Shown: positions 4,233 to 54,101, counted from the first letter of the stretch. The stretch is DNA of 64,000 nt from an uncultured Bacteroidales bacterium (GCA_963816365.1 CAWFKG010000017.1:28415-92414); one strand, 5' to 3'. Notes: generated by a model not told the origin, from the sequence alone. Made by a program: numbers and translations.

Positions 4233-4347
4233 ATGTAATTGGCAAAAGAAATTCACAATCTACAAGATGTGTAAAAAGGTTATTACCAGCAGGAAGGGCA
4301 ATCAAATAATTTAATTAGCCTCTGTGTTACTCCTGTGTTGAAAAAAG

Positions 4348-5730
4348 CTAAAAGGGAAGTTTTATGGATTCATCCCTTATAATGAATTTTCTTTTCCCGG
4401 AAGGAAGCAAAGGTATTTCAGCAACTATATTGATCTCAATATCAACATCTTTACCGATCAAATCATCAAGACCTTCAGCAATTGCAGCTTCAGTTACTTT
4501 ATTATACCTGTCATTTACAACCAGCAGTACTTTTACCTTATCAGGTTTGGGTTGAACAACCTGGAATTGAATAATTTCTGCAAAATATTCAAAGAAAATT
4601 GTGAACGTATGAACAATTAGGAATTTCCCTGAAGGTGTAACCAGTATGTCTGAATTTCTTCCTTTAATCTGCCTGAAAGATGCTAAATTCATTTCTGAAT
4701 TATGACTTTCTTCCGATTTTTCAATTATATCCTGTGTGTCATAACGGATAAAAGGCATAGCAAGGTTCCATAGATCAGTTGTTATATGTCTTCCGAGAGT
4801 TGCAGGCGAGTCATTGTTATCAAGCACCTCAGTAATTGCATATTCCATAGAGGCAAGGTATGCATTTGCGCTCAGGACCTTCAAAAAACTGGGCACTGGC
4901 TTCGCAGCTGTACGAATCGAAAACCGGGGCGCCAAATGCCTTTTCGATTTTTTTACGGGTATCTGGAGTAAGAATATTCCCGGTCGTATTTATTGCCTTT
5001 GGAGAATATTGTATACTATTCCCATCATTGATCAAACGTGAAAGAAAAAGCAGGGGATCAGGGTAACATCTTATAAATTCGGGTTGAGATTGATTCAGTC
5101 TTTGTATTACATCTTTCAGATTTTCCGGTGTCAGATCCCTGATAAATATGTATTGGCTACGTGTAACAAGGTCCTGGAGTTTCTTATAAAAACCTGTCCG
5201 TGGATTCTGGCTAAGCTTCGCATAGGTGTCACCAAGACTGTATCCCATCCAGTACCAGCCTCGGATAGCACAGGCATAATTCATACTATAAGCTTCAGGA
5301 GTTATGAAATAGGTAAAAGGCGCTCCGGTTGAACCGCTTGAATTAAGACGAATACGCTTTCTCGGTGAGATATTCCTTGCAATATAATAATCCTGCAGGA
5401 TGTTTACGCAGATCATTTTTTGAAATAACCGGAATTTTTTGGAGATCAGCAATTTCTTTATATCAGAAGGTACAAGATGATGTCTTCTGAAAAAGATCAT
5501 GATAGAATGGAACATTTTCATATGCATGTCTTACCAGAAATCCGTAATCGTTCTTCCTGATATGTCTTCAGCTCTTCAGCCTTCCAGTACTGGCTTTCAA
5601 GAAGGAAGTGAAGTGAATCCGGAAATGGATTGTCCGGAAAAAATATCATTTGCCGGAAGAATGATATTTTCCTGTAACCAGTTATAAGACTGCCATTATT
5701 CCCGTAAAGCTTCGAGATCATTTTGATCAA
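4348..5730 (-). CDS. phenylacetate-CoA ligase / CapK-like adenylate-forming enzyme, 2 frameshifts
   Basis: ORFs 5518..5730, 4829..5527 and 4348..4935 join into about 460 aa. The AMP-binding motif NSSGSTGAPF is present and the C-terminal domain ends PLLPSGKRKFI. Confidence 0.7.
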
Positions 5731-5759
5731 CTATTTTACTTTGCTGCGCAGCGGAGTAG

Positions 5760-6812
5760 TTATCTTTTACAGTCTGAATACCCTGCCTGAGCCATTCCGG
5801 CACGAAGGTTGTCATCACTAACACTAAGATGAATATATTTTGCGAATGATTTAATATCTCTGTAATTATTTATCAGAAAGGCATTTACTGAATGAGTGGC
5901 AGCATCGCTTACATTACCGACATTTGATATAACAGGAACACATCCGCAGGCCATGGCTTCAAGCATTGAAGTCGGAAGGCCCTCACTGCGTGAAGGCATA
6001 ACCAGAATTTTTGACCTTTGAAAATAGGATTCCGTATCATCTATGTGACCTGTAAAGACAACGTTTTCAGAAAGACCGAGCATCCTTGCCTGATCAATAC
6101 AGTATTTATAAAGATAGCCATCCCCTATAAAACAAGCCTTTAAAAGATGGGAAATCCTTTTTTAACAGAGTTAGCATCTGCAGTACTTTGTCGGGACCTT
6201 TAAGCTTGCGAAAGGTACCTACAAACAGAACATCAATATCTTTTAATGTGGATGAATTAAAATAAAACTTCGCCAGGTTTATGGCGCCGTTATAAACCAA
6301 TACTTTTGAAGATAAGAATGTTATGGTCAGTCAGATAGCTATTTACAATGCTCCCTTTTGTGGTTATCAGGTCGGTATTCCTTTAATGCCCATAAATTCA
6401 GCCGTTTCAGAAACCATCTGAAACGGCTGTATGTTTCAATTTCCACAATACCCCCAATAAGTGAAAGAATGCATTTTGAACCGGTTAACCTGGCAGCCAT
6501 CAGACTATTAATTCCTTTCGGTATCAGATGATAGCCGTTTATTATATCAGGTCGTATTTTATAGGCATGGTAAATCAGTTGAACAGGTTCCGCAATGAGT
6601 CTTACAAATCTGGACAGGAACCGTGGTTTTATATTCAATATCCAACCAGGCAGGGTAATGTATACTGTTTTTGGAAGCGGAAGTGCTTCCTTTTCCCTGA
6701 AAATGTAAATACGGCTTACTGAAGGATTAATTGTAAAAGGTTCAGCTTTTGAGTAAGTAAGAGATTTGCCCATCCTTCCGACAACCAGGAAACAGATTAA
6801 TTCTTTTTCCAC
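5760..6812 (-). CDS. glycosyltransferase family 4, two compensating frameshifts
   Basis: ORFs 6339..6812, 6106..6300 and 5760..6083. The C-terminal motif is SRSEGLPTSMLEAMACGCVPV (E-x7-E). Confidence 0.7.
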
Positions 6813-7890
6813 AAAGATCCGGATTTAATCTTTATGTTACTAAATAAATATTCTTTCGATTGAGGACTTAATTTGAATATATTCCTGAAAAGATATAACT
6901 TCATGTGGAGCCTTGCATACAGTCTTTGTTTTCTGCATTCATGCAAATATGTTTTCTGATAAAGCTCGCGCGGACCGGCCTGAATCAGGTTCCATTTTTT
7001 ATCCCTGCCTGCATTGTCAGATAATACTTCCTGAGTTATTGAATAATCTTGGGTGAAATCGGGTTGTATCCTGAACTTTTTTACCTGATAATCAATTGAT
7101 TTGTCTTCATTAAGAACCAGATCAACGTACATCCCATTTCTGACATTTTTTGACCAGAACATATCAAAAAGAAAATTCCCAAGGCTGTAAATAATAATTC
7201 CTCCATGATAGTTTTCAACCGGTTGAACAACATGCGGATGATGACCAATAATAATGTTTACTCCATTGTCAATAAGCTCATGGGCAAGATCGACCTGTGC
7301 TGGAGAGGGCCAGGTTACATATTCATTACCCCAGTGGAAACTGAATATAATAAAATCCGGTGATTGTGTTTTAATTTCGTCCAGGGTGTTAAAAAGTATG
7401 TCTCGATCCATGGGAGCGATCAAGTTGCATTCCGGATGATCATTGATCGCATTAAAAGCTGCAAATGCTATTTTCCTGTCTTTGCTTCTGATAATGGCTA
7501 TTTTGGAAATACTTTCCTGTCTCGAGCCTATATGTGATGAATCCATTATCTCTCCAAAGAGTTTATAGTTGAATCAGAACCCTCCCTGCCATGATCGGGC
7601 ATATGGTTATTTGCAATGGAAACAACTGAAATGTTAAGGATCTTCATTAGACGCAGAACTTCAGGATTTCCTTCAAATGGCTTTTTAACAATATTGGGCT
7701 TTATCAGGGGAGCTTCAAGATTACAGAAAACTATATCTGAATTACAAAACGGATTGTTCTTGTTATCGGAATAATATTCAATCAGCCTCGTCATATTACT
7801 TCCAATCCCATTCCCCATTGTATAAGCAGTATCAGCAGGCAATATATCACCTATACATGAAATTCTTATAGACCCCATATATCTAAGCAA
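6797..7890 (-). CDS. CapA/PgsA-type (PGA_cap) metallophosphatase-fold capsule synthesis protein, one frameshift at ~7546
   Basis: ORFs 7546..7890 (SIANNHMPDHGREG) and 6797..7546 (FSFHWGNEY..IIGHHPHVVQP..IIYSLGNF). Confidence 0.7.
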
Positions 7891-7925
7891 TTAACTTTGT
7901 CCTTCATACTGCTTTCTTCTCCCTT

Positions 7926-8045
7926 GACTTAGAGACTTAGAGACTCAGGGACTTAGAGATCGAAGTACTGAGCAATGTCCCTTTGTCCCTTAGTCTCTTA
8001 GTCTCTCAGTCTCTTAGTCTCTCAGTCTTCAGTCACTTAGTCTCC
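7926..8045. repeat. empty imperfect hairpin of the GACTTAG / CTTAGTCT 8-mer family
   Basis: The left arm at 7926-7959 and the right arm at 7986-8045 are complementary at about 29 of 34 aligned positions by eye. The loop is about 25 nt. The right arm ends on the stop codon of the 8045..9447 gene. Confidence 0.8.
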
Positions 8046-9447
8046 TAACCCCTGCCTTTAAGTCTGACATAATTCCACCCTACTATCAAAATAACAGCAG
8101 CAACCAGGTAAACCGGATACCATTTTTTACTTTTCATTTTATAGATCCCATATGCTGCCAGGATTAACAGAAATGGCTTTGCAGGATAGGAAAACCGGAC
8201 GGAAGTGAACATCATTGCCTTAAGCAAGACAAATTGATAACCAATAACAAATGCCAGTAATACAGCCATCTCCTTTCTTTTATACCGCAGGGAATAGTAT
8301 AAACCATAGAAGCTAAAAAAAGCCAATGCAATCCAGAAAATATTTCCTGCTATATGATAATAGTATTCGGAATGTGGCAGATCCCCGGCATTTGGGACAG
8401 TTACAACGCTTGGAAATGGGGAGATATATGACAGAACGGCAAATACAGGTGAGCCGACCAATGCCACAAATGGATTTATTCTTTCCATATATGATAACCG
8501 CTCCTGTGTGAATTCATCAACATTGGTATACTGGTTATAATATTCATCAAATCTGCCAGTTGATTTAAGAAAATATACAAAAGCAATAATAATAATACCT
8601 GCCAGTAAAATATTAAATATTAATGGCCTCCGTTTCAGCTGCATAAAGAATGAAAAACCCGATACCATTAATAGCAAGTATACTTACTGCTGGTCTGAAA
8701 GAAAAATAAGAGGATTATTAATAAAAGTTCCTTAAGCAAATAATGAAGTTTAAAAGATCTTTGTGTTTTAACCATTAGAATAAGGGCCTCGATCATTAAG
8801 AGAACCATAAGACTTTCCTTCAACATTATTTCTGAATAAAACCATGATATCGGATAGAGAACAAGCAATATTCCCGCAAGTCTGGCGGCGGGTCCTTCAA
8901 TCAGCAGACTAGCTAATTTATATCCCCTTACAACAACTATACTGCCTACAAAACAAAGGAAGATCTTTATTACTACCGGAGATAGTCCGAATATGAAAAT
9001 CGGGAACATCAGAAATGTTGAGAAACCTGTATTCGAAATATCATTCTTATAACTGGAAAAAATATGAAGATAAGCATCTCTTATTGTTTGATCTTTCCAA
9101 ATATCAACCGCCTCATTGGCAACACGATAATAAACCATTTCATCCCTTGCTCCTACTGTAAAAAACATATTCCAGGTTTTATAGGAAATTATGAGCAGAA
9201 TAAGCATAGCTACTATCCGGATTATAAATGCAATCCAGAACAACTTATAAACAAAACTTTTTTCATTGATCTGATTGCTGCTTTTAGACAGAATTCTTAT
9301 GCCTGAAATTGTCAGTATAATTATAAATGTTGCAGAAGCAATCCATTCAATACCATAGATTTTTCCAGGGAAAACCAGATATAGAACTATAAATAGAAGT
9401 AATATGAAAACAATAATTTTCCTCTCTATGTCAGAAGTCCAACCCAT
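8045..9447 (-). CDS. polytopic membrane protein, GT-C (ArnT/PMT_2-like) glycosyltransferase or polymerase, one frameshift at ~8670
   Basis: ORFs 8668..9447 and 8045..8677 carry at least 10 hydrophobic segments. The first-loop motif GARDEMVYYRVANEA resembles the DE..Y motif of ArnT-type enzymes. Confidence 0.45.
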
Positions 9448-9453
9448 CGGTTA

Positions 9454-10548
9454 TTATAAATTATTGGCGATTTCTAAAAATTGTTTTGCCCTGCATTCAG
9501 ATGATTGTCCGAATGCAATTTTTATTCCTCTGTCAATTATCCCTTTGCTTTTAGCTTTAATTACTGCCTCTTTGATTTTATTTACAAAATCAATCTTATC
9601 AGCTGCGATAAAAACAAAATCTTCAAAGACATTGTATTCCGCATCTAACCTATAACTCACAAAGGGTTTCCCAAGTGCCAGATATTGATACTGCTTATTA
9701 TTATTAAGATAATGAGCATATTCATGGTCAGGTTTTGCTGCAACCAGACCGATATCCCAGTTAATTACATATTTCCGGAAAATCATTGAATGGAATCAAA
9801 GCCAAGATATTTGACATTAGGATAAGTTAATAACTCATTCCACAAAAGCTGTTCTTCTTTATTTAAATCCAGTTTACCAGCAATTTCAAAATCGTATTCC
9901 GGAAGATTCTTTGCAATAAAAATCATTAATTCAATATCGATAACGTAGTCAATATTCCCAGCTAATCCGATTAACGGATTTCGTTTTTTCTGACAAAAGA
10001 TGCCCATTTATTATAATTCCACAAGTCAAGATCCACTGTATTTGGCCATAACTGTATATTGTCCGGAATAAATCATAATACTTTTTAAAATAATAACTGC
10101 AAAGGCTTTTGCTAATACCCAAAATCAGATTTGCCCGATTTATTATAGGAAATTCCTTTTTGAAATTGCCGGGATAAAGTAAAATACTCGGATCACGAAG
10201 CAGATAGATTAATTTTTGATCCCTTTTCAGGTATGGGAGAAGATAATACTGATTTGGATCAGTAAAAAAAATAAGTTCATAATGACGAAAAAACGAAATC
10301 CATTTAAAAGATCTCAGAAAATGTTCAAAAAATGTAAGAACTCTTATTTTTCTTAACTTTTCTACAGTCCAGAAATGATAAAAGTAAAATTTTATATCAA
10401 GAGATATATTTTTCTTTCTTCTGATATTCAAAACAGAGTTAAACAACAGAATATCAAGATCCGGGTTTAACTTATGAATAGATTCAATCGTTGCTCTGCG
10501 GGTATAGTTAATAAAATCAAGACTACTGCAGACTGTTAGAATTTTCAC
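9454..10548 (-). CDS. GT-B fold glycosyltransferase, 2 frameshifts
   Basis: ORFs 9949..10548, 9783..10007 and 9454..9786 read as one ~360-aa protein. The call rests on size, context and a C-terminal Rossmann-like segment only. Confidence 0.45.
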
Positions 10549-11766
10549 TTATACCAGCGATAAAAGTTCGAAAGCAAATGCATTATAATTCTCTTCAGCA
10601 TTGAAATTCTCTTCCCAATTTCTACGCGAATACAGACGTTTCTTTCCCCATTTCTCCTTTTCTAAATAAACTCCATAAATCGCCTCAGCAATTTCAAGTG
10701 GGGAAGGATTGGCTGAAAGAAGCAATCCGTTTATATTATTTACTATCTCAGGTATACCCCCTACAGCTGTAGCAATTACAGGAATACCAAATGATTGTGC
10801 TTCCATGATTGATACAGGTATTCCTTCATTCGCACTTACAGTCAAAAACAGGTCAACTGGCTTCGATTTATAAAAACTGAATATTTCGGAGTGTGTCAGC
10901 TGGCCTGGTAAAAAACACTGAACCGAAGAATCTTTTAATGAGCTATTCGCCTTTTCTACGTATTCAACCAAATCACTTCCACTTCCCAAATGATACCATC
11001 TTACATTAATTGATGGGAATATGGTACTGAATAATATCAATGAATCTAAAATAAGATTTATTCGTTTGTTTGGATTAATCGCTGAACATGACACCAGGGT
11101 AAGACCAGTATTCCCTTTGGAAAGATTGGTAAATTCCGGATCGGAGGTTCCAAGACGGGAAAGATAATATTTATCAGAAAATTCAGGATATTTATCAAAT
11201 ATATAATTCCGGCCATGATCGGAAATCAGAAACAGCCTGTCTAAATTTTTTATTGTTGCCGCTTTAATAAATGTCAGACTTTTTTCTCCCCTCTCTTCAT
11301 ATAAATCGAAACCATGTGCTCTGCTTATCAGAATTTTAATCCTTCCTTCCCTCTTTAATAAAGCCAACGAAAAGGCGCTGAAATTAAGCCAGTAAGAATA
11401 ATGAACTGATGACTCTTCGGGTATTATTTTTGATAACCTGTTCTTTGTTAAAGTTGCAAATCCCAGGTATTTTAATGCTTTGAAAATAGAAATCTTTTTC
11501 AGTTCATTTTTTATTTCAGGAATTTCTAATATCAAATACCACGATAAAAGTCCGACCAGGTACATTCTAAAAAGGTGCCATTTTTTATCCTGAACCGGAG
11601 AAAGTATCTGAATATTTCCCGGTACATTTCTAGGGGCTCCATCTGCCTTGAAAGGTACTATATAAACATTATTAAAGTGAAGAGAAAGAATTGGGATCTC
11701 AGTTTCCAGGAAGGTCTCTGCGTTCCCAAATGGAAAACTATTTGTATATATTGTCAGGACTGACAT
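10549..11766 (-). CDS. glycosyltransferase family 4
   Basis: Intact 405-aa ORF with the motif SANEGIPVSIMEAQSFGIPVIATAVGGIPEIV. Confidence 0.8.
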   Translation of the reverse strand: MSVLTIYTNSFPFGNAETFLETEIPILSLHFNNVYIVPFKADGAPRNVPGNIQILSPVQDKKWHLFRMYLVGLLSWYLILEIPEIKNELKKISIFKALKYLGFATLTKNRLSKIIPEESSVHYSYWLNFSAFSLALLKREGRIKILISRAHGFDLYEERGEKSLTFIKAATIKNLDRLFLISDHGRNYIFDKYPEFSDKYYLSRLGTSDPEFTNLSKGNTGLTLVSCSAINPNKRINLILDSLILFSTIFPSINVRWYHLGSGSDLVEYVEKANSSLKDSSVQCFLPGQLTHSEIFSFYKSKPVDLFLTVSANEGIPVSIMEAQSFGIPVIATAVGGIPEIVNNINGLLLSANPSPLEIAEAIYGVYLEKEKWGKKRLYSRRNWEENFNAEENYNAFAFELLSLV

Positions 11767-12760
11767 TGAGCAAAGATTTAAACCTTCTTTTTAATCCTAT
11801 TTCTGACCTGATAAAGTGATAATAATATGAGACATAATAAGTCATTACATTAAAAATCAGATTGATTTTTTTAAAGAACGAAAATTTCCTGTTAATTGAA
11901 ATTAAATGAAGAGCAGTTCTAACAAGACTATTGGTCGATGTGTTATAATTGGAGGTTTTTTGTCCTGTGTACCATCTGAACATCCCTATGTCAGAATTAA
12001 AGCGAACAACTCTTATATCAGCCATCAGTAGGCGGCCCCATAATTCATAATCCATAGAGTAATGGTTTTTTTCATTAAGATAGTCTGAATTTATTATTGC
12101 TTCAAGTGGGTAAAAACATGATTGCTGCATGATAGAGTCAACCTTTCTCCAGTAGTTTTTAATATTCAGTAGATCCGAAATGTTCTTTATCGCTGAAGGT
12201 TTGATCTCATCAATAATTTTGCTGTATTGATCAATTCTTAGCCCCTTTCCGATAAACAAAGCATGAATATCATTTTTAAACTGCTCTGCTAAACTTAAAA
12301 GCGCATTTTTACAAAGCATATCATCGCTGCAAATCCAATTGACCAGATCTCCGGTACATATTTTAATGCCTTTATTTATCGCATTACTCTGGCCGAGGTC
12401 AGGTTCACTTACCCAATAGGTTATCCATGGTTCGAATTTCCTTATTATGTCGATTGTATTATCGGTACTGCCGCCATCTATAATAATATATTCAAGGTTA
12501 GGGTAATTTTGTAAGAGGATAGATCTGATAGTTTCCTCAATAAATTGTCCCTGATTGAAACTCGGGGTAACAATGCTTATTCGTGGCCATGGACTGCCAT
12601 CGGACTGAAAAGGAGGAAGATAGTCGCTTTCTTCTGTCCACGGCCACCCCGTTTTCAACGGTACGGATGTTGGGAGATACTCTAACAAGCTTATCTTTCT
12701 ATAAAATATGTTATACCAATAATCAACTATAATTTGCCGGAATAGTTGCCCAGGATTCAC
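11738..12760 (-). CDS. glycosyltransferase family 2
   Basis: Intact 340-aa ORF with ISIVTPSFNQGQFIEETIRSILLQNYPNLEYIIIDGGSTD and a DxD-like CSDD. Confidence 0.85.
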   Translation of the reverse strand: MNPGQLFRQIIVDYWYNIFYRKISLLEYLPTSVPLKTGWPWTEESDYLPPFQSDGSPWPRISIVTPSFNQGQFIEETIRSILLQNYPNLEYIIIDGGSTDNTIDIIRKFEPWITYWVSEPDLGQSNAINKGIKICTGDLVNWICSDDMLCKNALLSLAEQFKNDIHALFIGKGLRIDQYSKIIDEIKPSAIKNISDLLNIKNYWRKVDSIMQQSCFYPLEAIINSDYLNEKNHYSMDYELWGRLLMADIRVVRFNSDIGMFRWYTGQKTSNYNTSTNSLVRTALHLISINRKFSFFKKINLIFNVMTYYVSYYYHFIRSEIGLKRRFKSLLNVSPDNIYK

Positions 12761-13550
12761 ATATGATATCGACCGGATACATTCTTCTCACCTTATACCC
12801 AAGCCAAAATTCAGGGGCAATAACCTTTAGATCCTCAGTAGTATTTAAAAATGCTCCCCACCAGGAATAAGAGGAATTCGAAATAATTAATCTATTGGCA
12901 TTTACCATTAACAAGAAATCAATAATAAAATGATTTTCTTCAATACTGAATGGAACTCTGAGCTTTAAATTCTGTTTAACATATGGAATATCATCACTTA
13001 TAACAAGGACTTTTGTGTTATCATCTATTTCAAGGTGATCAAGCGCATGCTGATAATATTCAAGTGGTAACTGAAGTCCTTTTCCCCCTAATTCTTCAGT
13101 ACCTATATTCAGATAATCCTTTAAACGTACATGGATAATTACAACTTTATATCTTTTAAACAGATCACCGTATTTCTCAGAAAAAATTCTTTGATATCTT
13201 TTTTTTATTCTAAAAAGTTTTTCCCTATCATCATTCTCCACAAAGAGTTCTGCCTGAAAAAATCCTTTATAAATGACTCCGGTTTTTAATGAATCTAATA
13301 TTATTTCTGGTTCCTGCCAGTTAGTGAATTCAACGATTTTTCTTGGAGTCAGAAAAAATATATGTTTCATGATCTTTCTAAAATACTTTCTTTCGTGAAA
13401 TCTGAGTTTAAAGTATTTTTCAACAAGACAACCATATGATTTATCATCAATTATTGCATAAATTTCATGAAGCATTTTTGAGGATCGTCTGATAAATGAA
13501 ATTTGAAAAAGCTGATTCCCTAACTGGCCTTGTAACTGTATTCCGATCAT
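12723..13550 (-). CDS. alpha-1,2-fucosyltransferase-like glycosyltransferase family 11
   Basis: The internal Met at 13550 gives MIGIQLQGQLGNQLFQ. Also present are HVRLKDY (GT11 motif HVRRGDY) and ISNSSYSWWGAFL. This start removes the overlap with the upstream gene. Confidence 0.8.
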   Translation of the reverse strand: MIGIQLQGQLGNQLFQISFIRRSSKMLHEIYAIIDDKSYGCLVEKYFKLRFHERKYFRKIMKHIFFLTPRKIVEFTNWQEPEIILDSLKTGVIYKGFFQAELFVENDDREKLFRIKKRYQRIFSEKYGDLFKRYKVVIIHVRLKDYLNIGTEELGGKGLQLPLEYYQHALDHLEIDDNTKVLVISDDIPYVKQNLKLRVPFSIEENHFIIDFLLMVNANRLIISNSSYSWWGAFLNTTEDLKVIAPEFWLGYKVRRMYPVDIICESWATIPANYS

Positions 13551-13570
13551 AGAATATTCTAGATAAAACT

Positions 13571-14602
13571 TCAGACGTGTCCCGCTGATTTTTGTTTTTT
13601 CCTCTTCATTACCAAAAAGCTGACACCGAATACAAGAGTAAGAGTTGCTATAAATAGAGATGATACCGCAAAGACTCCTATCCTGGTTGGTTTGCAAAAA
13701 AGTTCCACAAGGTAAGACGGTTCTTTATATCTCATCCATTTTTGTTTATAATCTTTAAAAATGTGATCGTGTGTTTCATTGTATAAAAAATCAAGTAATT
13801 CGATATGAAAGTTATGATACCAGGGTTTTGAGGGTTTTCCCAGAATATCATAGTTTGAATGACCATTGTTGTCATAGAAATGAAGGTTGTGTTTAACAGA
13901 ACTTACCCCTTTTCTGAAAAGAAACTGAGCATCCGGATCGTTTGTCATTTTTTGGAAATCATTTAGCGCCTGTAACACAACTATCATTCCGTTTAACACC
14001 CTTGATTGGGGAACATTGTCATCCGCATATTCCTCATACCAGTACCCGGTACTGTCTTTATAAGTCACACCACCATCTTTAACTTCAGTATACAAGACAT
14101 TCATTGATTTTTTTGCATATTCAAGATATATGGTATCATCTGTTTTTTCAAATGCTTGTAAGAATGCTTGCATAGCTCTGCCCTGATTCATTGCTGAACG
14201 CCATGGAGAGGTCATATTATAAACCGGCCAGTTATAGTAATCCAGAAATATAATTGAACTATCATTAAGTACAATGTTATTCTTTATCAACCAGCTTATG
14301 CAGTTAAAAAATTTCCTGTCATCAGTTGAATCTTTTTGGCCAGACAATTTTATTGCCTGTTCAGCCACAGTTACAGAATTATATTGCCTGCCAAGGCTCC
14401 CCTCATAAACTACCAGCGGTACACCAGTAGAATCATTTTGAAGATACTGAGACTTTTTCCCCGAAAGTTTCTGGTATATCCTGGTTTCAAAGCGTTCAAT
14501 GGAGCCTCCTACCTTATTAACAATAAAATAAGTCAGGAGAACTGAGCTTGCGATAAGTAATGAAATTCGATAAAATGCTTGCTTTTTGTTCATATATCTC
14601 AA
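13571..14602 (-). CDS. D-glucuronyl C5-epimerase C-terminal-domain-like protein with N- and C-terminal membrane anchors
   Basis: Intact 343-aa ORF. PWRSAMNQGRAMQAF, WYEEY, RVLNGMIVVLQAL, FYDNNGHSNYD and WYHNFHIELLDFL line up with the conserved blocks of the animal heparan sulfate C5-epimerase C-terminal domain (recalled as WYSAMAQGQAIS, WYEEY, VLNGFMYSL). Confidence 0.7.
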   Translation of the reverse strand: MRYMNKKQAFYRISLLIASSVLLTYFIVNKVGGSIERFETRIYQKLSGKKSQYLQNDSTGVPLVVYEGSLGRQYNSVTVAEQAIKLSGQKDSTDDRKFFNCISWLIKNNIVLNDSSIIFLDYYNWPVYNMTSPWRSAMNQGRAMQAFLQAFEKTDDTIYLEYAKKSMNVLYTEVKDGGVTYKDSTGYWYEEYADDNVPQSRVLNGMIVVLQALNDFQKMTNDPDAQFLFRKGVSSVKHNLHFYDNNGHSNYDILGKPSKPWYHNFHIELLDFLYNETHDHIFKDYKQKWMRYKEPSYLVELFCKPTRIGVFAVSSLFIATLTLVFGVSFLVMKRKKQKSAGHV

Positions 14603-14626
14603 CTCAATGAGCTGATTGTCTGAAAA

Positions 14627-15514
14627 TTATTGGATGAACTGTGAAATCTGTTCGATTTTTTCTTCCGGAATTAATATATAATCGCTTTCTGAAAGGTTTC
14701 CGTCAACAATAAATGAATCTAATCTGGTCAATTTCCAGAGGTGATTCGCTTTGTCCTTATTTATTCTGAAAATACTATAATTCAGATCTTTGAAAATTGC
14801 TTCTATTTGAATCTGTCTGTTTACCCTGTTAACATTGCTCTTAGTATATGCAGGCAGAATTTCAATTATCATTACAGGTCTCTCAGTTGAAATTATTCGT
14901 TTTGCACCAGAAATAACTTCCAGCTCAGCACCCTCAACATCAATCTTGATAATTCCGATCTCTTTTTCATAAAAAAGCTCCAGGTCATCCAGTCTTGAAG
15001 AAATCACATACTCACGTTTTACAACTTTGTCACCGGGACGATAATCAGATATAATCGATGCTGTAACATCAACATCATTATCATAGTAAAACTGTAATGT
15101 TGTTACACCGGTTTTATCACTCACACCAAATGGCATCAGGTTAATTCCAGGAAGATTATTGACCTTTATTAATTCTTTCAGATAGGCAATACATGATGGG
15201 TTCACTTCAAAACCAAAATACTCTCTTCCGCTCTCGATGCTCTTTAATTTCAGAAGTGTTTGACCGGTATTGGCACCGGCGTCAATAAAAATGCCTTTGT
15301 TAGCCGGCAGTAATACTTCAAGTAATTCTGTCATCCATGGCTCATTTTCAAAAATGTTGCTCCATCCGGTATTTTTTAATACAGGTATTTTGTATGTAGT
15401 ATTGCCAAATCTATGTCTCAGAGTGAAGTTAAACGCAGCAAGGCAGTTCCCTTGCAAAATTTTTAGTTTACGTAAAGATTTGGCTATTAATAATGATCTT
15501 TGCATGAGCAACAA
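14627..15514 (-). CDS. FkbM-family methyltransferase
   Basis: Intact 295-aa ORF with FIDAGANTGQT, PFGVSDKTG and IKIDVEGAELEVISGAKR. Confidence 0.8.
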   Translation of the reverse strand: MLLMQRSLLIAKSLRKLKILQGNCLAAFNFTLRHRFGNTTYKIPVLKNTGWSNIFENEPWMTELLEVLLPANKGIFIDAGANTGQTLLKLKSIESGREYFGFEVNPSCIAYLKELIKVNNLPGINLMPFGVSDKTGVTTLQFYYDNDVDVTASIISDYRPGDKVVKREYVISSRLDDLELFYEKEIGIIKIDVEGAELEVISGAKRIISTERPVMIIEILPAYTKSNVNRVNRQIQIEAIFKDLNYSIFRINKDKANHLWKLTRLDSFIVDGNLSESDYILIPEEKIEQISQFIQ

Positions 15515-16766
15515 TTACAATAAATTCTGATACAACTCAATATATTTATCAGCCTGATGGTTTATTGTGAATCCGGTCAGTACTTTATCGCGGCAATTAT
15601 CCGCCATCTTTTTATAATTTTTTTCATCTAACTTAAGTATCTGGTCTATAGCATATGAAAGACCGTGAATGTTGCCCGTATCTGCTAAATAACCTGTTAC
15701 CCCGTTTATGACCATATCAGGAATGCCTCCGGTATCAAAGCCTGCAACTGGTATTCCGCAAGACATTGCTTCCAGCGCGGTTTGCCCGAATGCTTCCTGA
15801 AGGGATGGTATGACAAAAACATCTGCACTGCTATAGATCAATGAGAGTAAATGATTACTACCAACATTCCCCAGATGTAAATTGGCTAAATCAATATTGG
15901 TTGGTAAAGTTCCTGATCCAAAGCTGAGTAAAAATAAGTTTGAATAAATTCTTCGAAGTTGAATTAATGCTGCCAAAAGTTCATGAAACCCTTTTCTTGG
16001 ATTATTAATTCCCGGTGCGCCAAATACAATTATCCGGCTATCGACAGGAATATTTAATGCCCGCCGGCAGGCAATTTTATCAAGAGGGGTGAATTCATCA
16101 GTTTCAATGCCATAATGAACAGTGCCAATATTCAGATCTTTAAGTAAACGGCTTCGTTTTGCTTCACCAGCCAGCCAATGGCTGTCAGCTCTTATTATTA
16201 TTCTTTTTTTAAATTGAGTGATAGCTCTGAATTTTCGTTCCCAGCTGAAATAGGAAAGATCTTTATCTGAGGTTGACCCCAATTGCGGACATTGTCTGCA
16301 GCGTGTTTTGAATTTTTCACAACCGCTGTTATAATGACAACCTCCTGTAAAAGGGAACATATCATGAAGTGTCCAGACTACAGGTTTATTCACTGTTTTA
16401 AAGAACGCCGGCAAATCAACGAAACCAGATGTCCAGTGTAAATGATAAATATCTGCATCGGGCAATTGACGACTGAATCCTGCTTTCAGAGCGCTTCGGT
16501 CGTCGCTGAAGAGTTCCTGATTTGTCTGGCGGGAATTGAGAATATTTAGCAAAATCAGAACTTATAAGGTTCTTACGGCTCCTGTATAGGAATTTTTCAA
16601 ACGACACGGGATATTTATAACTGATAACCGTCTCATCATCAGAGTATTTTGTACGAACGAACATATTAGAAGCAACAGATTTCTGAATCAGACCTTTGTG
16701 AAGTCTGTACGCAGCTCTTGAGGCACCGCCTGAATTGTCAAGAGTGCTGAGATGCAGAATGTGCAT
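15515..16766 (-). CDS. glycosyltransferase family 4, one frameshift at ~16420-16550
   Basis: ORFs 16416..16766 (MHILHLSTLDNSGGASRAAYRLHKGL) and 15515..16552 (IPSLQEAFGQTALEAMSCGIPVAGFDTGGIPDMV). Confidence 0.7.
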
Positions 16767-17791
16767 TACGTAATTTTTTAATTTTTCTCAAAAGAGACTT
16801 CTTATATCGTGTAAAAACATCTTCAAACGGATTTAGAATAATATAAAAGGACTTTTTCAAATTGTAAACTGGATTGTGAAGAAGTTTTTCGATATCATTT
16901 GTTTGTCTTTGCTTGACCGGTAATATTCCCTGATCAATGTCTCTGACCATAGATAAGATCTGTCCGGGATGTTTCCCTTTAAACCTTTTCAGCCATGATA
17001 CATCCCAATAAACACTGAATACACTGAACGGATCCTCGAGATTCATAAAAACTTCGTTGGCCCACCATTCAGCTTTTTTACGCTGTGACCATTCTGCATT
17101 TTTGTAATAGTCAGCCTTTTCGGCAACCTGTTTTGGAAAAACAAAAGAATAATGGTACAGGTAAATGCCCAGTTTTTGTGTCTGTTTTGCTCTTAACCAT
17201 TTTATTTTTCTTGTATCCAGTACCCTGAGCATCAACAACTGTTGGCGGACGATGTGAGGTATATTCAAAACCGGGACCCCATTTAAATAATCTGTGAAAT
17301 TCTTCAGCTCCCCGCTTTAGTAACCAGCTGTCAACGAGATAATCAAATCCTCCCCAAAACTGTAGTTGTTTGAAGGATATTGAGGTAATTTCAGGATCAT
17401 ATTCCAGGATTTGTTTGATTGATTCAATATCTTCATCCTTGTAAAATTCATCAATATCCACCTGCCAGAGATAATTTCCTGTTGCTCTTTTTGCATATGC
17501 CCGGCTTTGCTCATGTTTCTCTCCGGGCCAGAAGCCATTTGGATGACCTTCATCCTCGGCAGTTATAATAGTTATTTTATTTTCAGGATCGTTATGCCTT
17601 TTAATCTCTCTGAGTATTTCAAGAGTTCCATCCTTTGAATGACCATAAGGGTCTGCAACTGCACGGGCCCCTTCACATGCACCCTCGGATATAAGTATTT
17701 CGTGAGCATGAGGATATAGTGCATTGATGCAATAACGGGTAAATGGCTCACCATTAAGAACAATTATGCCGAAGCTTATTTTTGAAGACAT
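16738..17791 (-). CDS. GT-A fold (family 2-like) glycosyltransferase, one frameshift at ~17110-17270
   Basis: ORFs 17111..17791 (SFGIIVLNGEPF..QVDIDEFY) and 16738..17268. The assignment is weak. Confidence 0.45.
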
Positions 17792-18986
17792 GTTAAATAA
17801 ATCTTCTCAAGCCTTTTATTCAGCATATCAATATCATAGTTCTTTGCAATATGAGCTCGTCCTTTGTTACCTAATTTATTTCGCAATTCAGGATTTGAAA
17901 TCAGAGTTTTTAAATAGGTTGCCATAAGTTCTGTGTCTTTACTTTCGACCAGGAATCCGTTTTCTTCATGATGTACAAGCTCGGAAACGGCAGCTACATC
18001 TGGTAGCGATAACCGGCAATCCTGAAGCCAGGGCTTCCATGATAACAACAGGTGTCATTTCATCCAGGCTAGGGAGTAAAAAAATATCGGCATTCTTGTA
18101 TTCAATTAGGAGCTCATCCTTATTTTTAGGACCTGTAAATACGACATCTTTCTGAATATTAAGATCTGAAGCTATTTTCATAAGATTTTCCAGTTCCGGG
18201 CCATAGCCTACAATTCTGTAAGTAAATCCGAAAATCAGGAAGCTCTTTTTTAATTATATGAAAAGCCTCCAATCCATATTGATGACCCTTAATTGAATGC
18301 GAGTCTGCCTACGCTTAATATAACAATTTCATTTGTGCTTTTTGCCGTCTGGCTATTGTTTTGTACTTCTTTGTATCAACACCTACTGGATGAATGATTA
18401 TCTTTTCTTCCGGAACTCCAAACCTGTTTAAATTTTATAAGAATAATTGCTGATAGCCAAAATTTTATCAGCATATTTAAAGCTTTCGGAGTAGATACTT
18501 CCATTTGATTCAATCAGGTTTACGAAGATCATATCTATGCATCATCAGAACAATAGGTGCTTTGATCCCCAATTTCTTTAAGAAGGATAGCCCTGTCCAG
18601 TAATCAGTATAATGAACCTGGATGATATCAATATTTTTATTCAGGAAAGGAAGTACCTGGTAAAAGATCCTTAAAGAGAGAGCTTGTTTTCCGAATTTAA
18701 ATATGTTCAGGCTTTTGAATACCTGTTTATTATTGTCGCTAAAAAGTTTAAAAATAATTGGAATTGATTTAAAATACCGGTTAAGGATATTCTTATGAAA
18801 GGGTATTGGATATATTGCATAAGAATTCAGATCATAGCTCGAAATTTCACGATGAAAGATGCCTTTTTTTTCATATTTTGGGAAAATTAAAACCTCATGT
18901 CCCTGGTCAATCAGGCCTGTAATCTGATTCAGGATAAATGTTTCAGGAAGGCTTGGGAATGCTCCAATGATAAACGCAATTTTCAA
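17776..18986 (-). CDS. glycosyltransferase family 4, several frameshifts
   Basis: The N-terminal ORF 18510..18986 reads MKIAFIIGAFPSLPETF. The C-terminal pieces 17966..18181 and 17776..18048 read LPSLDEMTPVVIMEALASGLPVIAT..ENGFLVE. Confidence 0.6.
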
Positions 18987-19087
18987 GATTTATTTTTTTA
19001 AAATCCCTTGAAATGAATTTAATTAAGTTAGTTAATCCCAAAGCTCATTAAACAGCTTTAGTCTTTTTATAATAAGGATAATTATCT

Positions 19088-19920
19088 TTAACTCACCCAT
19101 CTCAATTCTTTGGGATACAAATCGGTAGATACTCCTTCTTTTATTGAATTTGCAACAAGTTTTAAATGATATTGAATCAGGGCGTTATTAGTTTCTTCAT
19201 TATAATTTCCTATCATATATAGATAGTGGTTCAACATGTATGAAAGTTGTCGTTTTTTTATCTGCTGAGGACCACAAACCTCCTTCATGTACACGCGTGG
19301 TTCCCATTACTTCAGGAAAATATTTAATCTTCCCAAGTTGAGCATACATTACAAATAATGGGAAATCATTCAATAATAATATTTTGATAAGAAATCAGGA
19401 TAATCTAATTGATAATTTCTAAGAACAACCGATAGTGTTGGGATAGAAATTTCTCCTGTAGCCAATTCTTTTACAGTATAAAAATCTTTAACATTCGTCA
19501 GATAGCTATCGTTGACGCCGATCACCAGAAACTGATACATTATGACAAGATATTGAGTAATCCGGATTAGCCTCTAAAAAATCTACCTGTCTTTGCAATT
19601 TATTGGAATCGGTCCAATAATCATCCCCCTCAAGAATTGCGAATATATTTTGCTCCACTGTTAATACAAGCTTGATACACTTGCCTTGCATTTAATGCTC
19701 CTCCCAAATTGGATTTATTTAATGTCAATTCAATGTTTTCAGGATATCTTGTTTTATAACTGAAACATATTTCCCGTGTTTTATCTGTTGAGAAATCATC
19801 TCCAATAAATAGCTTGATAGGAAAAGTTGTCTTTTGTGTTAAAACACTTTCAATTGCCTCTGATATGAATTTTTCATGATTATACGTAATCATTAAAATA
19901 CTCACAAATGGGATACTCAT
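19088..19920 (-). CDS. glycosyltransferase family 2, several frameshifts
   Basis: ORF 19630..19920 (VSILMITYNHEKFISEAIESVLTQ..GDDFSTD), ORF 19506..19691 (LEGDDYW) and ORF 19088..19294. Confidence 0.6.
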
Positions 19921-19967
19921 TTTATTTTTTTAGGATTATGTCAAACCTATAATGGGAATTTATCATA

Positions 19968-20611
19968 TTAGCAGGCTGGATCCAATACTTTGCATTCTTT
20001 AAAACCAATAAAGTTACCCAACTTTAGAAGAAATTCTTTTGTGTACCAAAAACCGATAATAGGCTTGCTATCTTTAATTGAATTGAAATATGCATTTTCA
20101 CGTTCTTCATTATTAAAATAATTCCATAGCCTGTCAGCATCAGGTATGTCTCCAATAAATAATAATCCCTCATATTCTAGCCAATTAAATATTTTTTCGA
20201 AAAGTCTAATTGTATCTTTTTCGTCAAAATGTTGAAGTGCAAAGTAGATTATAACTTTACTAAAGGATCTGTTTTTAAAGATTATTTTTCGGACATCATT
20301 TGTTATGGTGGTGACATTTTGACGTCCAAAACTGTTGATTCGATTAATAAGGGTTTTCGAGATATCAACCGCGGTTATATGTTTGCACTTTTCAGAATAA
20401 GGTATTGAAATTAAACCATTCCCAGCACAAAGATCGAGAAGGCGATCTTGGATGTTGAGATTAATATGTTTTTCAATATATTGAAGTGTAAATATCCAAT
20501 TATCCTCATTAATTGGTTTTTTGTTAATGCTTCGCCCAATCTGAAGTTGAGGATCAGAATTCTTATAATTTGAATTCCATTCCAAAATTTCACCCAGTAA
20601 TCTTTTCCCAT
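19968..20611 (-). CDS. class I SAM-dependent methyltransferase, probable frameshift near 20580
   Basis: ORF 19968..20585 carries LLDLCAGNGLISIPY..ITAVDIS. The overlapping ORF 20411..20611 (MGKDYWVKFWN) probably supplies the true start. Confidence 0.65.
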
Positions 20612-20698
20612 TTTAGTAAGATTAAATTACTACATATTTATCCTTCCAGGCTAGCCTATGAGAGTAGTACAAAAACAACAATTTCTGTAAAACGAAAT

Positions 20699-21541
20699 TT
20701 ACTTTTCTGTCTTTTCAAATAAGTAACCAACATATTCAACATCTTTTTTAAGCCCATTCGGATAAACAATTTCTCCAACTATTTGATAGTCGTGAAAGCA
20801 ACTAAGAAAATGGTTTTTATTAAATATCATCACTGGGATAGTAGCTTGGAATATATAAGGAGGTACTTTTTGAATACAAATAGTGTCATTAGTCAAATCA
20901 TCTTTAAAAACTGGATGAAGATCAAATAAGAGATAGTCAAACTTATATTGCAAAATGTGATTCAATAATTGATATGGATCTTCAATATATTGAAGTGTTC
21001 CAGACAGCATAACTATATTCACATCATTTTCACGGAGGGCTTCTTCGACAGAATAATAAAAAGAAAGTGAAGGATTTGAAAAGCTTTTTTTTCCCTCATC
21101 TACAATTTTTTCTTGTTCAATAATATTCCATTTAAATTTATTCAATCCATTTAAATATTTTCTATATTGATAAAATGAAGTACCGAGAGATCCACCCAAG
21201 TCAATAATATTCAATTCATTATTCTTTTTTATTGCAGCGTAGAGCAACCATGTCAATACATGCCATGAATATTTTATTTTATCATATTTATAATATAAAA
21301 CTGTGTCCCTCTCAAAAGCAGCTAAACCATCTCTGACTTTTGCCAATGAACCAATCGTTTTTGTTATTATGTTATCTTGATTATATCCACCAGATGCTTT
21401 TTGTGCTTCTGCCCAAGATTTATAAACACCCTTGTACCCATATTTTGATGGAAATCCATTAGTTAGAAACTTCGGCAATATTAATGTAACAATTTTTCTT
21501 AACATTATGGTTAAATCTTTTATTTGAAATATACAATTCAA
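20699..21541 (-). CDS. putative methyltransferase of the TIGR04325 (LIC12133-like) type
   Basis: Intact ORF with GYKGVYKSWAEAQKASGGYNQDNI..AAFERDTVLY..IIDLGGSLGTSFY. The true start may be the internal MLRKIV. Confidence 0.55.
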   Translation of the reverse strand: MNCIFQIKDLTIMLRKIVTLILPKFLTNGFPSKYGYKGVYKSWAEAQKASGGYNQDNIITKTIGSLAKVRDGLAAFERDTVLYYKYDKIKYSWHVLTWLLYAAIKKNNELNIIDLGGSLGTSFYQYRKYLNGLNKFKWNIIEQEKIVDEGKKSFSNPSLSFYYSVEEALRENDVNIVMLSGTLQYIEDPYQLLNHILQYKFDYLLFDLHPVFKDDLTNDTICIQKVPPYIFQATIPVMIFNKNHFLSCFHDYQIVGEIVYPNGLKKDVEYVGYLFEKTEK

Positions 21542-25844: not shown

Positions 25845-26688
25845 CAGTGTCCATAAAGGTTTTCTCAGTTCTGTTAAAAATTGCTACTCCGATAAAAAAG
25901 AGAACAATTGAAAAGATACCACTATAAATAATCCGTTCAGGTAAAATTCACCGGAACCTGTAAATCCATATTTAAATGCTTCAACTACTGAACTTACAGG
26001 ATTTGCCATAATCACCCACCTGTATTTTTCAGGGATCTGAGATATCGGATAAATTACCGGTGTAACATACATCCAGAGTTGAATACCAAACTGAATCAGG
26101 AATGTAAGATCACGGTATTTGGTGGTCATTGCTGAAATGATCAATCCAAAACCGAGTGCCAATATCGCCAGGATAATAATATAAACAGGCAAAAGCAACA
26201 GACTGATATTGGGATTTATCTGTTGATTAGTAAAATAGTAATAAAAGAAAACGCCCAGAAATAAAATGAACTGAATTGAGAATTTAACCAGGTTGGAAGC
26301 TACTATCGATAAAGGAGAAATAATCCTGGGGAAATAGACCTTTGCCAAACAAGCCTGCATTTTTCACAAATGTATCTGAGGTAAGACGAAGACATTCTGA
26401 AAAATAATTCCATACAGTAATTCCTCCAAGATAGAATAAGATCGGAGGAACTCCTCCAGTTGAGATTTTTGCAATTCTGCCAAAGACCAGCAGGAACATA
26501 AGTGTAGTCAGAAGAGGTTGAATGAAAAACCACAAAGGACCTAAAATTGTTTGCTTATATGTATACGGTAATATCTCGTTTAATGAACAGAACAAACAGA
26601 TCACGATAATGCCAGATCTCATCCAGCTTAAGATCAAGAAGATGCTTTTACGTGGAGTGATTGTCGAAATTTTATCCGGTGAATCCAT
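25840..26688 (-). CDS. wzm: ABC-2 type polysaccharide transporter permease (Wzm), 2 frameshifts
   Basis: ORFs 26284..26688 and 25884..26360, plus a terminal frame reading [11 protein letters not shown]. There are six hydrophobic segments. Confidence 0.75.
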
Positions 26689-26689
26689 T

Positions 26690-26788
26690 GTTGAGGTTTA
26701 GTGTTTAAGGTGAGGCTGAGGTTGACAGTTGAGGATGAGGTTGAGGCTTAGTCTTCTTAGCTTTGGACCTTAACCTTAATCTTAGCCT
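26690..26788. repeat. hairpin of the same GAGGTT / AACCTT family with unequal arms
   Basis: Purine-rich arm 26690-26749 is followed directly by pyrimidine-rich arm 26750-26788. It spans the gap between the wzm start (26688) and the wzc-like stop (26782-26784). Confidence 0.75.
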
Positions 26789-52600: not shown

Positions 52601-53113
52601 TCGGTCCGCAGATATGGCAAGCTTATGAAGGATATAAGCAACTCGATTGCAGCATTCACACCTCAGGAAATTGTTGCATTCGAAAACTCCGGAACTCATG
52701 CTGTTACTATTAACGGACAGGAGATTATTCTGACCACCGGAGATGTTGAAATAATTTCAGAGGATATACCAGGCTGGCAGGTTGCAAATGACGGTAAGCT
52801 GACTGTCGCTCTTGATATAACTGTATCTGACGATTTGCGTTATGAAGGTATTGCGAGGGAGTTTGTAAACCGGATCCAGAATATCCGTAAGGAAAACGGG
52901 TTTGATGTTACTGATAAAATCACAGTCTTATCGAAGATCATGATTTTGTGCATGAAGCAGTAACCAGACATTCATCCTATATCGCTTCACAGACGCTTGC
53001 TACTTCTGTCGAGTTAGCAGAAACGTTTCGACGGAACCAATATACGTGAAGTAGATATTGATGAGTGGGTGGTGAAGGTGCAGGTGAAGAAGCAAACTTG
53101 TAGAACCTTCTGA
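49643..53113 (+). CDS. ileS: isoleucine--tRNA ligase (long Bacteroidota type), at least 6 frameshifts
   Basis: PSANGIPGIHHVMARTIKD (HIGH region), the editing domain in ORF 50169..51395, KMSKRLGNAV (KMSKS), and C-terminal frames to ..EVDIDEWVVKVQVKK. Confidence 0.9.

Positions 53114-53158: not shown

Positions 53159-54098
<940 letters not shown>

Positions 54099-54101
<3 letters not shown>

Follow-up and report, generated by a model that had tools for sequence, protein, structure and literature searches.

A doubly membrane-anchored homologue of the GLCE catalytic domain is a fixed member of a conserved Bacteroidales glycan operon

Animal D-glucuronyl C5-epimerase (GLCE), with structures available as 6HZZ, 6I01 and 4PW2, is a protein of 617 aa that functions in the Golgi lumen and is anchored in the membrane at its N-terminus. 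It consists of a dimerising β-hairpin domain, a β-sandwich domain and an α-helical catalytic domain (PMC13308652), the β domains helping to form the dimer and the substrate cleft. That 2026 paper, which cites Debarnot et al. 2019, names E499, Y500, N510, Y560 and Y578 as key residues (PMC13308652), and according to a 2026 review Tyr578 is the base that takes the C5 proton and Glu499 the acid that re-protonates the opposite face (PMC12834895). The pathway setting of the animal-type epimerase is that of heparosan and N-sulfoheparosan, with a heparosan synthase, an N-deacetylase/N-sulfotransferase (NDST) and O-sulfotransferases.

Uronate C5 epimerisation at the polymer level is also carried out by AlgG in the periplasm and AlgE outside the cell, both acting after export. 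These enzymes convert ManA to GulA and are built on a right-handed β-helix. Among bacterial members of the C5-epim_C family (PF06662), RED65_08024 (RED-C5epi) of the gammaproteobacterium Bermanella marisrubri is said to have been proven a GlcA C5-epimerase by Raedts and colleagues in 2013. This 448-aa protein (PMC3068255) was the only assayed bacterial enzyme as of June 2026, and a sequence alignment reportedly suggests a GLCE-like mechanism (PMC13308652). A larger class of candidates was described by Raedts et al. 2011, who listed 38 sequences from about 32 prokaryotic organisms, located beside glycosyltransferase genes (PMC3068255). Their list includes a Bacteroides as well as E. coli O112ab and Shigella boydii 15, where the genes belong to O-antigen clusters (PMC3068255); the O-antigens encoded by these two PF06662-containing clusters contain L-IdoA and are among the few bacterial glycans that do (PMC3068255; PMC7685785). 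Another small protein, comprising an α-helical barrel only, is Agl32 (VNG1058H) of Halobacterium salinarum, an archaeal GlcA C5-epimerase of N-glycosylation that produces IdoA in a surface glycan; it lacks the GLCE catalytic residues and falls in an AglQ/AGE-like group (PMC13308652).

We examined a GLCE homologue encoded in a window of 64,000 nucleotides from an uncultured Bacteroidales bacterium (GCA_963816365.1 CAWFKG010000017.1:28415-92414). The preliminary description of this DNA had reported an intact reading frame of 343 aa, and the frame is indeed uninterrupted over its whole length (Table 1). The ATG at 14593 is the likely true start and yields a protein of 340 aa, a form identical to the database protein P0001. 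The motifs listed in the preliminary description are all present and align with GLCE (PWRSAMNQGRAMQAF, WYEEY, VLNG, YDNNGHSNYD and YHNFHIELL), and the hydropathy scan found a transmembrane helix at each end of the protein, where hydrophobic segments had been claimed. Scans of the window for tRNA genes and Rfam families gave no match. A T9SS sorting domain is encoded elsewhere in the window and, together with the closest relatives, assigns the organism to the Bacteroidales.

Table 1. Features of the epimerase gene and its surroundings, in positions of the window.
Feature	Position	Strand	Remarks
C5-epimerase homologue, CDS	13571..14602	-	uninterrupted; 343 aa counted from TTG at 14602
Epimerase stop codon	13573-13571	-	
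N-terminal transmembrane helix	14519..14575	-	aa 10-28; hydropathy scan
PF06662 C5-epim_C catalytic domain	13733..14221	-	aa 128-290
E191 codon	14030-14032	-	GLCE alignment
Y192 codon	14027-14029	-	GLCE alignment
N204 codon	13991-13993	-	GLCE alignment
Y251 codon	13850-13852	-	GLCE alignment
Y262 codon	13817-13819	-	GLCE alignment
C-terminal transmembrane helix	13610..13666	-	aa 313-331; hydropathy scan
GT11 fucosyltransferase-like gene, downstream	12723..13550	-	PF01531 E=3e-18
GT2, constant downstream partner	11738-12760	-	
GT4, constant downstream partner	10549-11766	-	
Weakly TuaH-like GT4, constant downstream partner	9454-10548	-	frameshifted in assembly
Polytopic membrane protein, constant partner	8045..9447	-	~10 transmembrane helices; frameshift-split
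FkbM-type methyltransferase, upstream	14627..15514	-	intact; PF05050 E=7e-15
GT4 glycosyltransferase, constant upstream partner	15515..16766	-	frameshift ~16535; 416 aa in L002
ABC-2 permease fragment	25884-26360	-	Pfam
Wzz/GNVR/P-loop tyrosine-kinase-like genes	26782-27957, 28284-29219	-	cluster head

The homology of the protein to GLCE was examined at the level of both sequence and structure. The match to PF06662 is highly significant (E=3.1e-43; 147.9 bits against a gathering cut-off of 23.3), and the alignment spans profile positions 19-187 of 188, nearly the whole model; an NCBIfam scan of the protein gave no curated model at E<=0.001. When the sequence was searched against solved structures, the GLCE chains 4pw2, 6hzz and 6i01 were matched at E=1e-13 to 9e-15, with zebrafish GLCE (4pw2) at E=9e-15 and human GLCE (6hzz) at E=3e-14, and the identity to the animal catalytic domain was 25-28% over approximately 215 residues. 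An AlphaFold2 model built from an alignment of 30 homologues was of high confidence (pLDDT 93.7, pTM 0.86) and contains the α-helical barrel fold of the GLCE catalytic domain. In a Foldseek search of the PDB with this model, the best 8 matches were all GLCE chains (E approximately 1e-9, probability 1.00), and the superposition upon 6hzz_A gave an rmsd of 2.4 Å over 213 columns. GH76 mannanases and cellobiose 2-epimerases ranked after GLCE, at E>=5e-6.

The catalytic residues of GLCE are also present. In the alignment, 6i01 differs from 6hzz by a single Tyr-to-Phe change, which we take to be the Y578F mutant of GLCE, and the presumed position of this mutation fixes human numbering as the chain position plus 90. 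The offset is consistent with the rest of the alignment, in that each of the five listed residues is then paired with one of the same type; the aligned pairs (this protein/human GLCE) are E191/E499, Y192/Y500, N204/N510, Y251/Y560 and Y262/Y578. All five are invariant in 30 diverse homologues with identities down to 32%, archaea included, and among about 148 family representatives clustered at 50% identity each is kept in 119 to 143 (80-98%). The preliminary description had staked its assignment on a significant domain match and on the presence of the catalytic residues. Since the domain assignment is strong and the residues are present, neither a failed match nor a missing residue speaks against it. 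These data indicate genuine homology of the protein to the catalytic domain of GLCE.

The homology is confined to this domain. The alignment with GLCE is limited to chain residues 314-520, and the three-domain architecture of the animal enzyme is not seen; apart from the helical domain, the model has only the helices at the two ends and some short strands. Substrate recognition must differ from that of GLCE, because the β-hairpin and β-sandwich domains are absent. A further difference is the extra transmembrane helix at the C-terminus, which animal GLCE does not have. AlgG and AlgE, of an unrelated fold, gave no sequence or structural match to the protein (Foldseek), and in contrast to Agl32 the protein keeps all five GLCE catalytic residues. 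RED65_08024 shares PF06662 with it, a comparison made by description only, but is longer and comes from a gammaproteobacterium rather than from a Bacteroidales glycan operon. The closest counterparts are the candidates of Raedts et al. 2011, for example Gae of E. coli O112ab and S. boydii 15 (323 aa) and a protein of Bacteroides sp. 1_1_6 (305 aa), which are likewise small PF06662 proteins among glycosyltransferases. Compared by description, these have N-terminal signal peptides and not a double anchor (PMC3068255), whereas the protein studied here has an N-terminal transmembrane helix, accompanied by the C-terminal one. The epimerase homologue is a small PF06662 protein whose gene lies in the company of genes for glycosyltransferases and polysaccharide export, and it belongs to the prokaryotic glycan-cluster C5-epimerase candidates of Raedts et al. 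2011.

The gene lies within a long same-strand cluster, every gene from approximately 29.2 kb down to approximately 2 kb being on the minus strand. Genes of export and chain length stand at its head. Counting those in Table 1, the cluster encodes three methyltransferases and several GT4 and GT2 glycosyltransferases; it also encodes a DegT aminotransferase, WbqC, a PGA_cap/CapA-like protein and a PaaK/F390-synthetase-like ligase. Gaps of only about 20-33 nt separate the epimerase gene from its two same-strand neighbours. These are the GT11-like and FkbM genes named in the preliminary description, whose positions and Pfam matches were confirmed. The true start of the GT11 gene is the ATG at 13550, so that it does not really overlap the epimerase gene; the overlap of the open reading frame 12723-13697 is an artefact of ORF calling.

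Comparison with related metagenome-assembled genomes (MAGs) identified which of these neighbours are constant. A glycosyltransferase-rich locus of about 15 kb is common to seven Bacteroidales/Rikenellaceae MAGs. Over 4.3-19.9 kb the window is colinear with L001 and L002 (OY970276.1, 1,412-1,433 kb), two MAGs of uncultured Bacteroidales, the nucleotide identity being approximately 75%; with five more, one of them a Rikenellaceae MAG, it is partially colinear. The six related MAG loci that span the region have the gene order GT4-[FkbM]-epimerase-[GT11]-GT2-GT4-GT4-membrane protein; the seventh, L005, is a 3-kb contig that shows GT4-FkbM-epimerase only. By ortholog mapping, the constant core is GT4-epimerase-GT2-GT4-GT4(weakly TuaH-like)-membrane protein. 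The last of these is 466 aa long in L002 and has no family match; it may be a polymerase or a GT-C enzyme. Of the 8 related loci, the window counted, 6 have the FkbM gene, the exceptions being L003 and L004; the GT11 gene is found only in the window, L001 and L002. The mapping thus identifies the epimerase as a fixed component of the pathway and FkbM and GT11 as variable inserts, so that the two genes stressed in the preliminary description as the context of the epimerase are not its constant partners. The epimerase gene is a fixed member of a conserved same-strand Bacteroidales glycan operon.

A potential concern with the analysis of this locus is the number of broken genes. Segments that run for at least 100 aa without a stop make up 81% of the window as compared to 97-99% in L001-L007. 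Frameshifts, one to three per gene, affect 8 of the 14 genes that the locus has in common with L002, and the locus contains 12 or more in all. The essential gene ileS is also split in the window, into at least five pieces, and for this reason assembly error is the more likely cause of the broken neighbours. These data point to many indels in the assembly and not to decay in the organism. No break lies in the block 10549-15514, to which the epimerase gene belongs. We considered whether the epimerase might be a pseudogene or part of a decaying locus, and rejected this because the gene is full length and conserved.

Homologues of the protein are far more numerous than the preliminary description had supposed. 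In place of the few bacterial homologues it mentioned, a search of 1.84 billion representatives with a family profile gave 5,723 matching clusters (50% identity) with E<=1e-3, of which 1,246 reached E<=1e-30. A strict motif scan gave at least 107 matches to the subfamily among 185,579 species genomes, spanning Bacteroidota, Ignavibacteriales, Zixibacteria, Cloacimonadota, Nitrososphaerales, Methanotrichaceae, Thermoplasmata and others, and plasmid-borne homologues in RefSeq are annotated as 'D-glucuronyl C5-epimerase family protein'. What is rare is biochemical proof, not homologues. The genomic setting differs across the family. The neighbours of distant homologues (115 neighbours, two genes per side) represent 120 Pfam families with no dominant partner, no sulfotransferase family is among the 25 commonest neighbour families listed for these distant homologues (each with at least two members), and outside Bacteroidales the epimerase gene often has no adjacent glycan genes. 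The glycan-locus setting is a feature of Bacteroidales and not of the family as a whole.

We propose, with a little more confidence than doubt, that the protein is a doubly anchored hexuronyl C5-epimerase which faces the periplasm and acts upon the glycan of its operon, either as a polymer or while lipid-linked, with D-GlcA to L-IdoA as the most probable reaction. The K/R-rich tails would lie in the cytoplasm and hold the catalytic domain at the periplasmic face of the inner membrane. The substrate would be a finished or growing glycan, lipid-linked or exported, and not a nucleotide sugar. Tyr262, the counterpart of GLCE Tyr578, would take the C5 proton from a D-glucuronic acid residue, and Glu191, the counterpart of Glu499, would re-protonate the opposite face to leave L-iduronic acid within the polymer. 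Such a scheme would parallel GLCE in the Golgi lumen and AlgG in the periplasm; the likeness to the post-export, polymer-level epimerisation by AlgG and AlgE is one of analogy.

The identity of the uronate has to be judged from the genes that accompany the epimerase. Pfam and NCBIfam scans covered approximately 45 ORFs of the window and 18 genes of L002, and within the locus no Ugd, identifiable glucuronosyltransferase, heparosan synthase or sulfotransferase was found. The Ugd-type catalytic-Cys motif, for which the window and 79 related loci were scanned, was matched just twice, in neither case in a Bacteroidales locus. The heparosan/N-sulfoheparosan pathway setting is thus not seen at the locus, and the substrate is unlikely to be either polymer, because the genes for a heparosan synthase, an NDST and a sulfotransferase are lacking. 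With no Ugd, heparosan synthase or sulfotransferase nearby, the conversion of GlcA to IdoA is one that we can only infer; an iduronate-containing polymer is a plausible product of the locus. The UDP-GlcA decarboxylase at 53162 to which the preliminary description had pointed is a homologue of human UXS1 (E=2e-96). A frameshift near 53300 breaks its gene, which is 39 kb away from that of the epimerase, and all that can be read from it is that UDP-GlcA is probably made by the organism.

The same chemistry at the same location could instead be directed at another uronate, converting D-ManA to L-GulA, D-GalA to L-AltA, or a HexNAcA such as ManNAcA to L-GulNAcA. We regard this as unlikely, yet as a serious alternative. 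The catalytic residues specify proton exchange at C5 of a uronate and not which uronate, the domains that help form the substrate cleft of GLCE are absent, the locus contains no GlcA-specific gene, and differing specificities have been proposed for paralogues (Raedts et al., PMC3068255). In addition, the DegT and WbqC genes, together with the hexapeptide acyltransferase and FabH-like enzymes encoded in the loci of relatives, point to modified amino sugars. On the other hand, all assayed PF06662 enzymes, from animals (GLCE), snail and Bermanella, convert GlcA to IdoA (PMC13308652; PMC12834895), the sole prokaryotic correlation with a glycan structure, that of O112ab and S. boydii 15, is with IdoA, and the UXS gene implies a supply of UDP-GlcA. 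These considerations favor D-GlcA to L-IdoA as the reaction of the periplasm-facing enzyme.

We also examined the membrane anchors, as these bear on the side of the membrane where the catalytic domain is found. In the AlphaFold2 model, long helices at aa 6-47 and aa 307-341 frame the helical domain. Of 98 full-length homologues, 85 have both terminal helices, as do 144 of 202 mid-length family members; this double-anchor architecture is conserved, and we found no description of it in the literature searched. The N-terminal helix is preceded by the K/R-rich tail MNKKQAFYR and the C-terminal one is followed by the basic tail MKRKKQKSAGHV. Among the homologues the mean net charge is +2.1 for the N-terminal tail and +3.2 for the C-terminal one, as compared to +0.4 and +1.8 on the domain side. 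By the positive-inside rule, basic tails favor a cytoplasmic location for the tails and a periplasmic one for the catalytic domain. Further evidence comes from relatives with additional modules: 4 of the 10 long relatives examined combine the domain with modules of an extracellular kind, namely PKD, TIG, dockerin or CARDB. The charge bias, with which the fusions mostly agree, suggests that the catalytic domain probably faces the periplasm, and would thus be extracytoplasmic, as in animal GLCE.

If the domain faced the cytoplasm, it could convert UDP-GlcA to UDP-IdoA, as proposed for Gae, or act on an undecaprenyl-linked intermediate before export. Counts of K and R alone, with net charge ignored, do not separate the two sides (39/85). 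In one relative the epimerase domain is directly joined to a GT4 with no transmembrane helix between, and in the relative P0195 the two-helix module follows a heparinase II/III-like domain, implying an epimerase domain on the cytoplasmic side; because these two arrangements disagree with it, the periplasmic orientation is something we infer rather than observe. The ABC-2 permease of the locus would fit complete assembly in the cytoplasm, and a UDP-L-IdoA pathway via Gae has been drawn in a review of E. coli O-antigens, by its own statement not on an experimental basis (PMC7685785). Against a cytoplasmic enzyme stand the strongly basic tails and the extracellular modules of the long relatives, as well as the requirement of the characterised GLCE for polymers of at least six sugars and an extracytoplasmic compartment (PMC13308652); moreover, the Pfam scan found no nucleotide-binding motif or domain. 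We consider a cytoplasmic enzyme improbable. Very improbable is a non-epimerase (α/α)-barrel, that is, a glycan lyase, a hydrolase or a non-catalytic glycan-binding protein of trimming or export, a reading favored by the weaker Foldseek likeness to GH76, cellobiose 2-epimerases, the EPS hydrolase PssZ and a polysaccharide lyase, by the initial C5 proton abstraction that uronate lyases share, and by the heparinase II/III-like domain fused in one relative, but opposed by E-values that are more than a thousandfold better for GLCE chains than for any other fold, by the conservation of the complete GLCE catalytic set including the re-protonating Glu, and by there being no known PF06662 lyase or hydrolase.

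The gene itself will not surprise specialists, because the family, its prokaryotic spread and its association with glycan clusters have been published since 2011. As a compact epimerase in a conserved operon, it is a reasonable candidate lead to an IdoA-containing bacterial polymer. It is also a candidate for a small, bacterially expressible C5-epimerase for chemoenzymatic glycosaminoglycan work, for which the animal enzyme is hard to produce. The double anchor raises the question of the stage of the export pathway at which polymer-level epimerisation takes place.

Two-helix proteins of about 335 aa are found in Bacteroidota, in many other bacterial phyla and in archaea (Nitrososphaerales, Methanotrichaceae and Thermoplasmata). 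We tentatively suggest, with the balance somewhat against us, that these may constitute a distinct 'mini-GLCE' class, located on the outer face of the cytoplasmic membrane, which would epimerise uronic acids in flipped, lipid-linked glycans other than glycosaminoglycans. Few prokaryotic glycans are known to contain L-iduronic acid. If such a class exists, L-iduronate or other L-hexuronates would be far more common in the surface glycans of environmental prokaryotes than the known structures suggest.

The glycan locus of about 15 kb (window positions 4335-19900) that contains the epimerase gene is colinear, at approximately 75% nucleotide identity, with loci in several uncultured Bacteroidales/Rikenellaceae MAGs. 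Colinearity extended over the full length in L001 and L002 and over part of the region in L003, L004, L006 and L007. Such stability is unusual among surface-polysaccharide loci. The locus has a fixed core, around which GT11, FkbM, PGA_cap and GT4a are cassettes that may be present or absent. A conserved polytopic membrane protein, for which neither Pfam nor NCBIfam gave a match, is always encoded by the fourth gene downstream from that for the epimerase; it is possibly a polymerase or GT-C enzyme of an unclassified kind. The PaaK/F390-synthetase-like ligase and the PGA_cap protein occur in the locus constantly or often, and hint that the polymer is decorated with an acyl group or amino acid.

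A variable cassette was observed at window 19968-21541, compared with L002:1263-4463. The window encodes two methyltransferases here, one of Methyltransf_25 and one of the TIGR04325 family (E=2e-54), and the counterpart in L001-L004 encodes a methyltransferase, a hexapeptide acyltransferase, a 310-aa protein with weak similarity to GH130, and a FabH-like KAS III.

Features of the window, with counterparts in the related locus L002
Feature	Window	L002	Remark
PaaK/F390-synthetase-like adenylate-forming ligase	4348-5686	18975-20318	fragmented; downstream side
PGA_cap (CapA-like) protein	6797-7890	16796-17878	fragmented; downstream side
Membrane protein	8045-9447	15284-16684	466 aa, ~10 transmembrane helices; fragmented; downstream side
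Weakly TuaH-like GT4	9454-10548		fragmented; downstream side
GT4	15515-16766		fragmented; upstream side
ORF	16738-17791		fragmented; upstream side
ORF	17776-18986		fragmented; upstream side
Beta-helix protein, T9SS C-terminal sorting domain	33322-35676
Bac_transf initiating sugar-phosphate transferase	43058-44605		515 aa; 30 kb from locus
ileS (essential tRNA synthetase)	49643-52963		split into at least 5 pieces
UXS	53162-54101		frameshift-type fragmentation
Bacterial alpha-2-macroglobulin	58734-62471		1,245 aa

Frameshift-type breakage of ORFs is pervasive throughout the window. Only 81% of it lies in stop-free segments 100 aa or more in length, as against 97-99% of syntenic relatives, and 8 of the 14 locus genes held in common with L002 are broken. 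This breakage most likely stems from an indel-rich, possibly long-read, assembly and not from pseudogenisation. The T9SS beta-helix protein, the Bac_transf transferase and the alpha-2-macroglobulin are all ordinary for Bacteroidota.

Outside the window, the epimerase's relatives in its family include fusion proteins (P0184, P0195, P0230, P0231, P0232, P0243 and P0266). In some of these C5-epim_C is joined to PKD, TIG, dockerin or CARDB modules; its other partners are a Wzx-like Polysacc_synt transporter, a GT4 glycosyltransferase and a heparinase II/III-like domain. These fusions suggest that the family includes secreted, cellulosome-like and biosynthesis-coupled epimerase variants.
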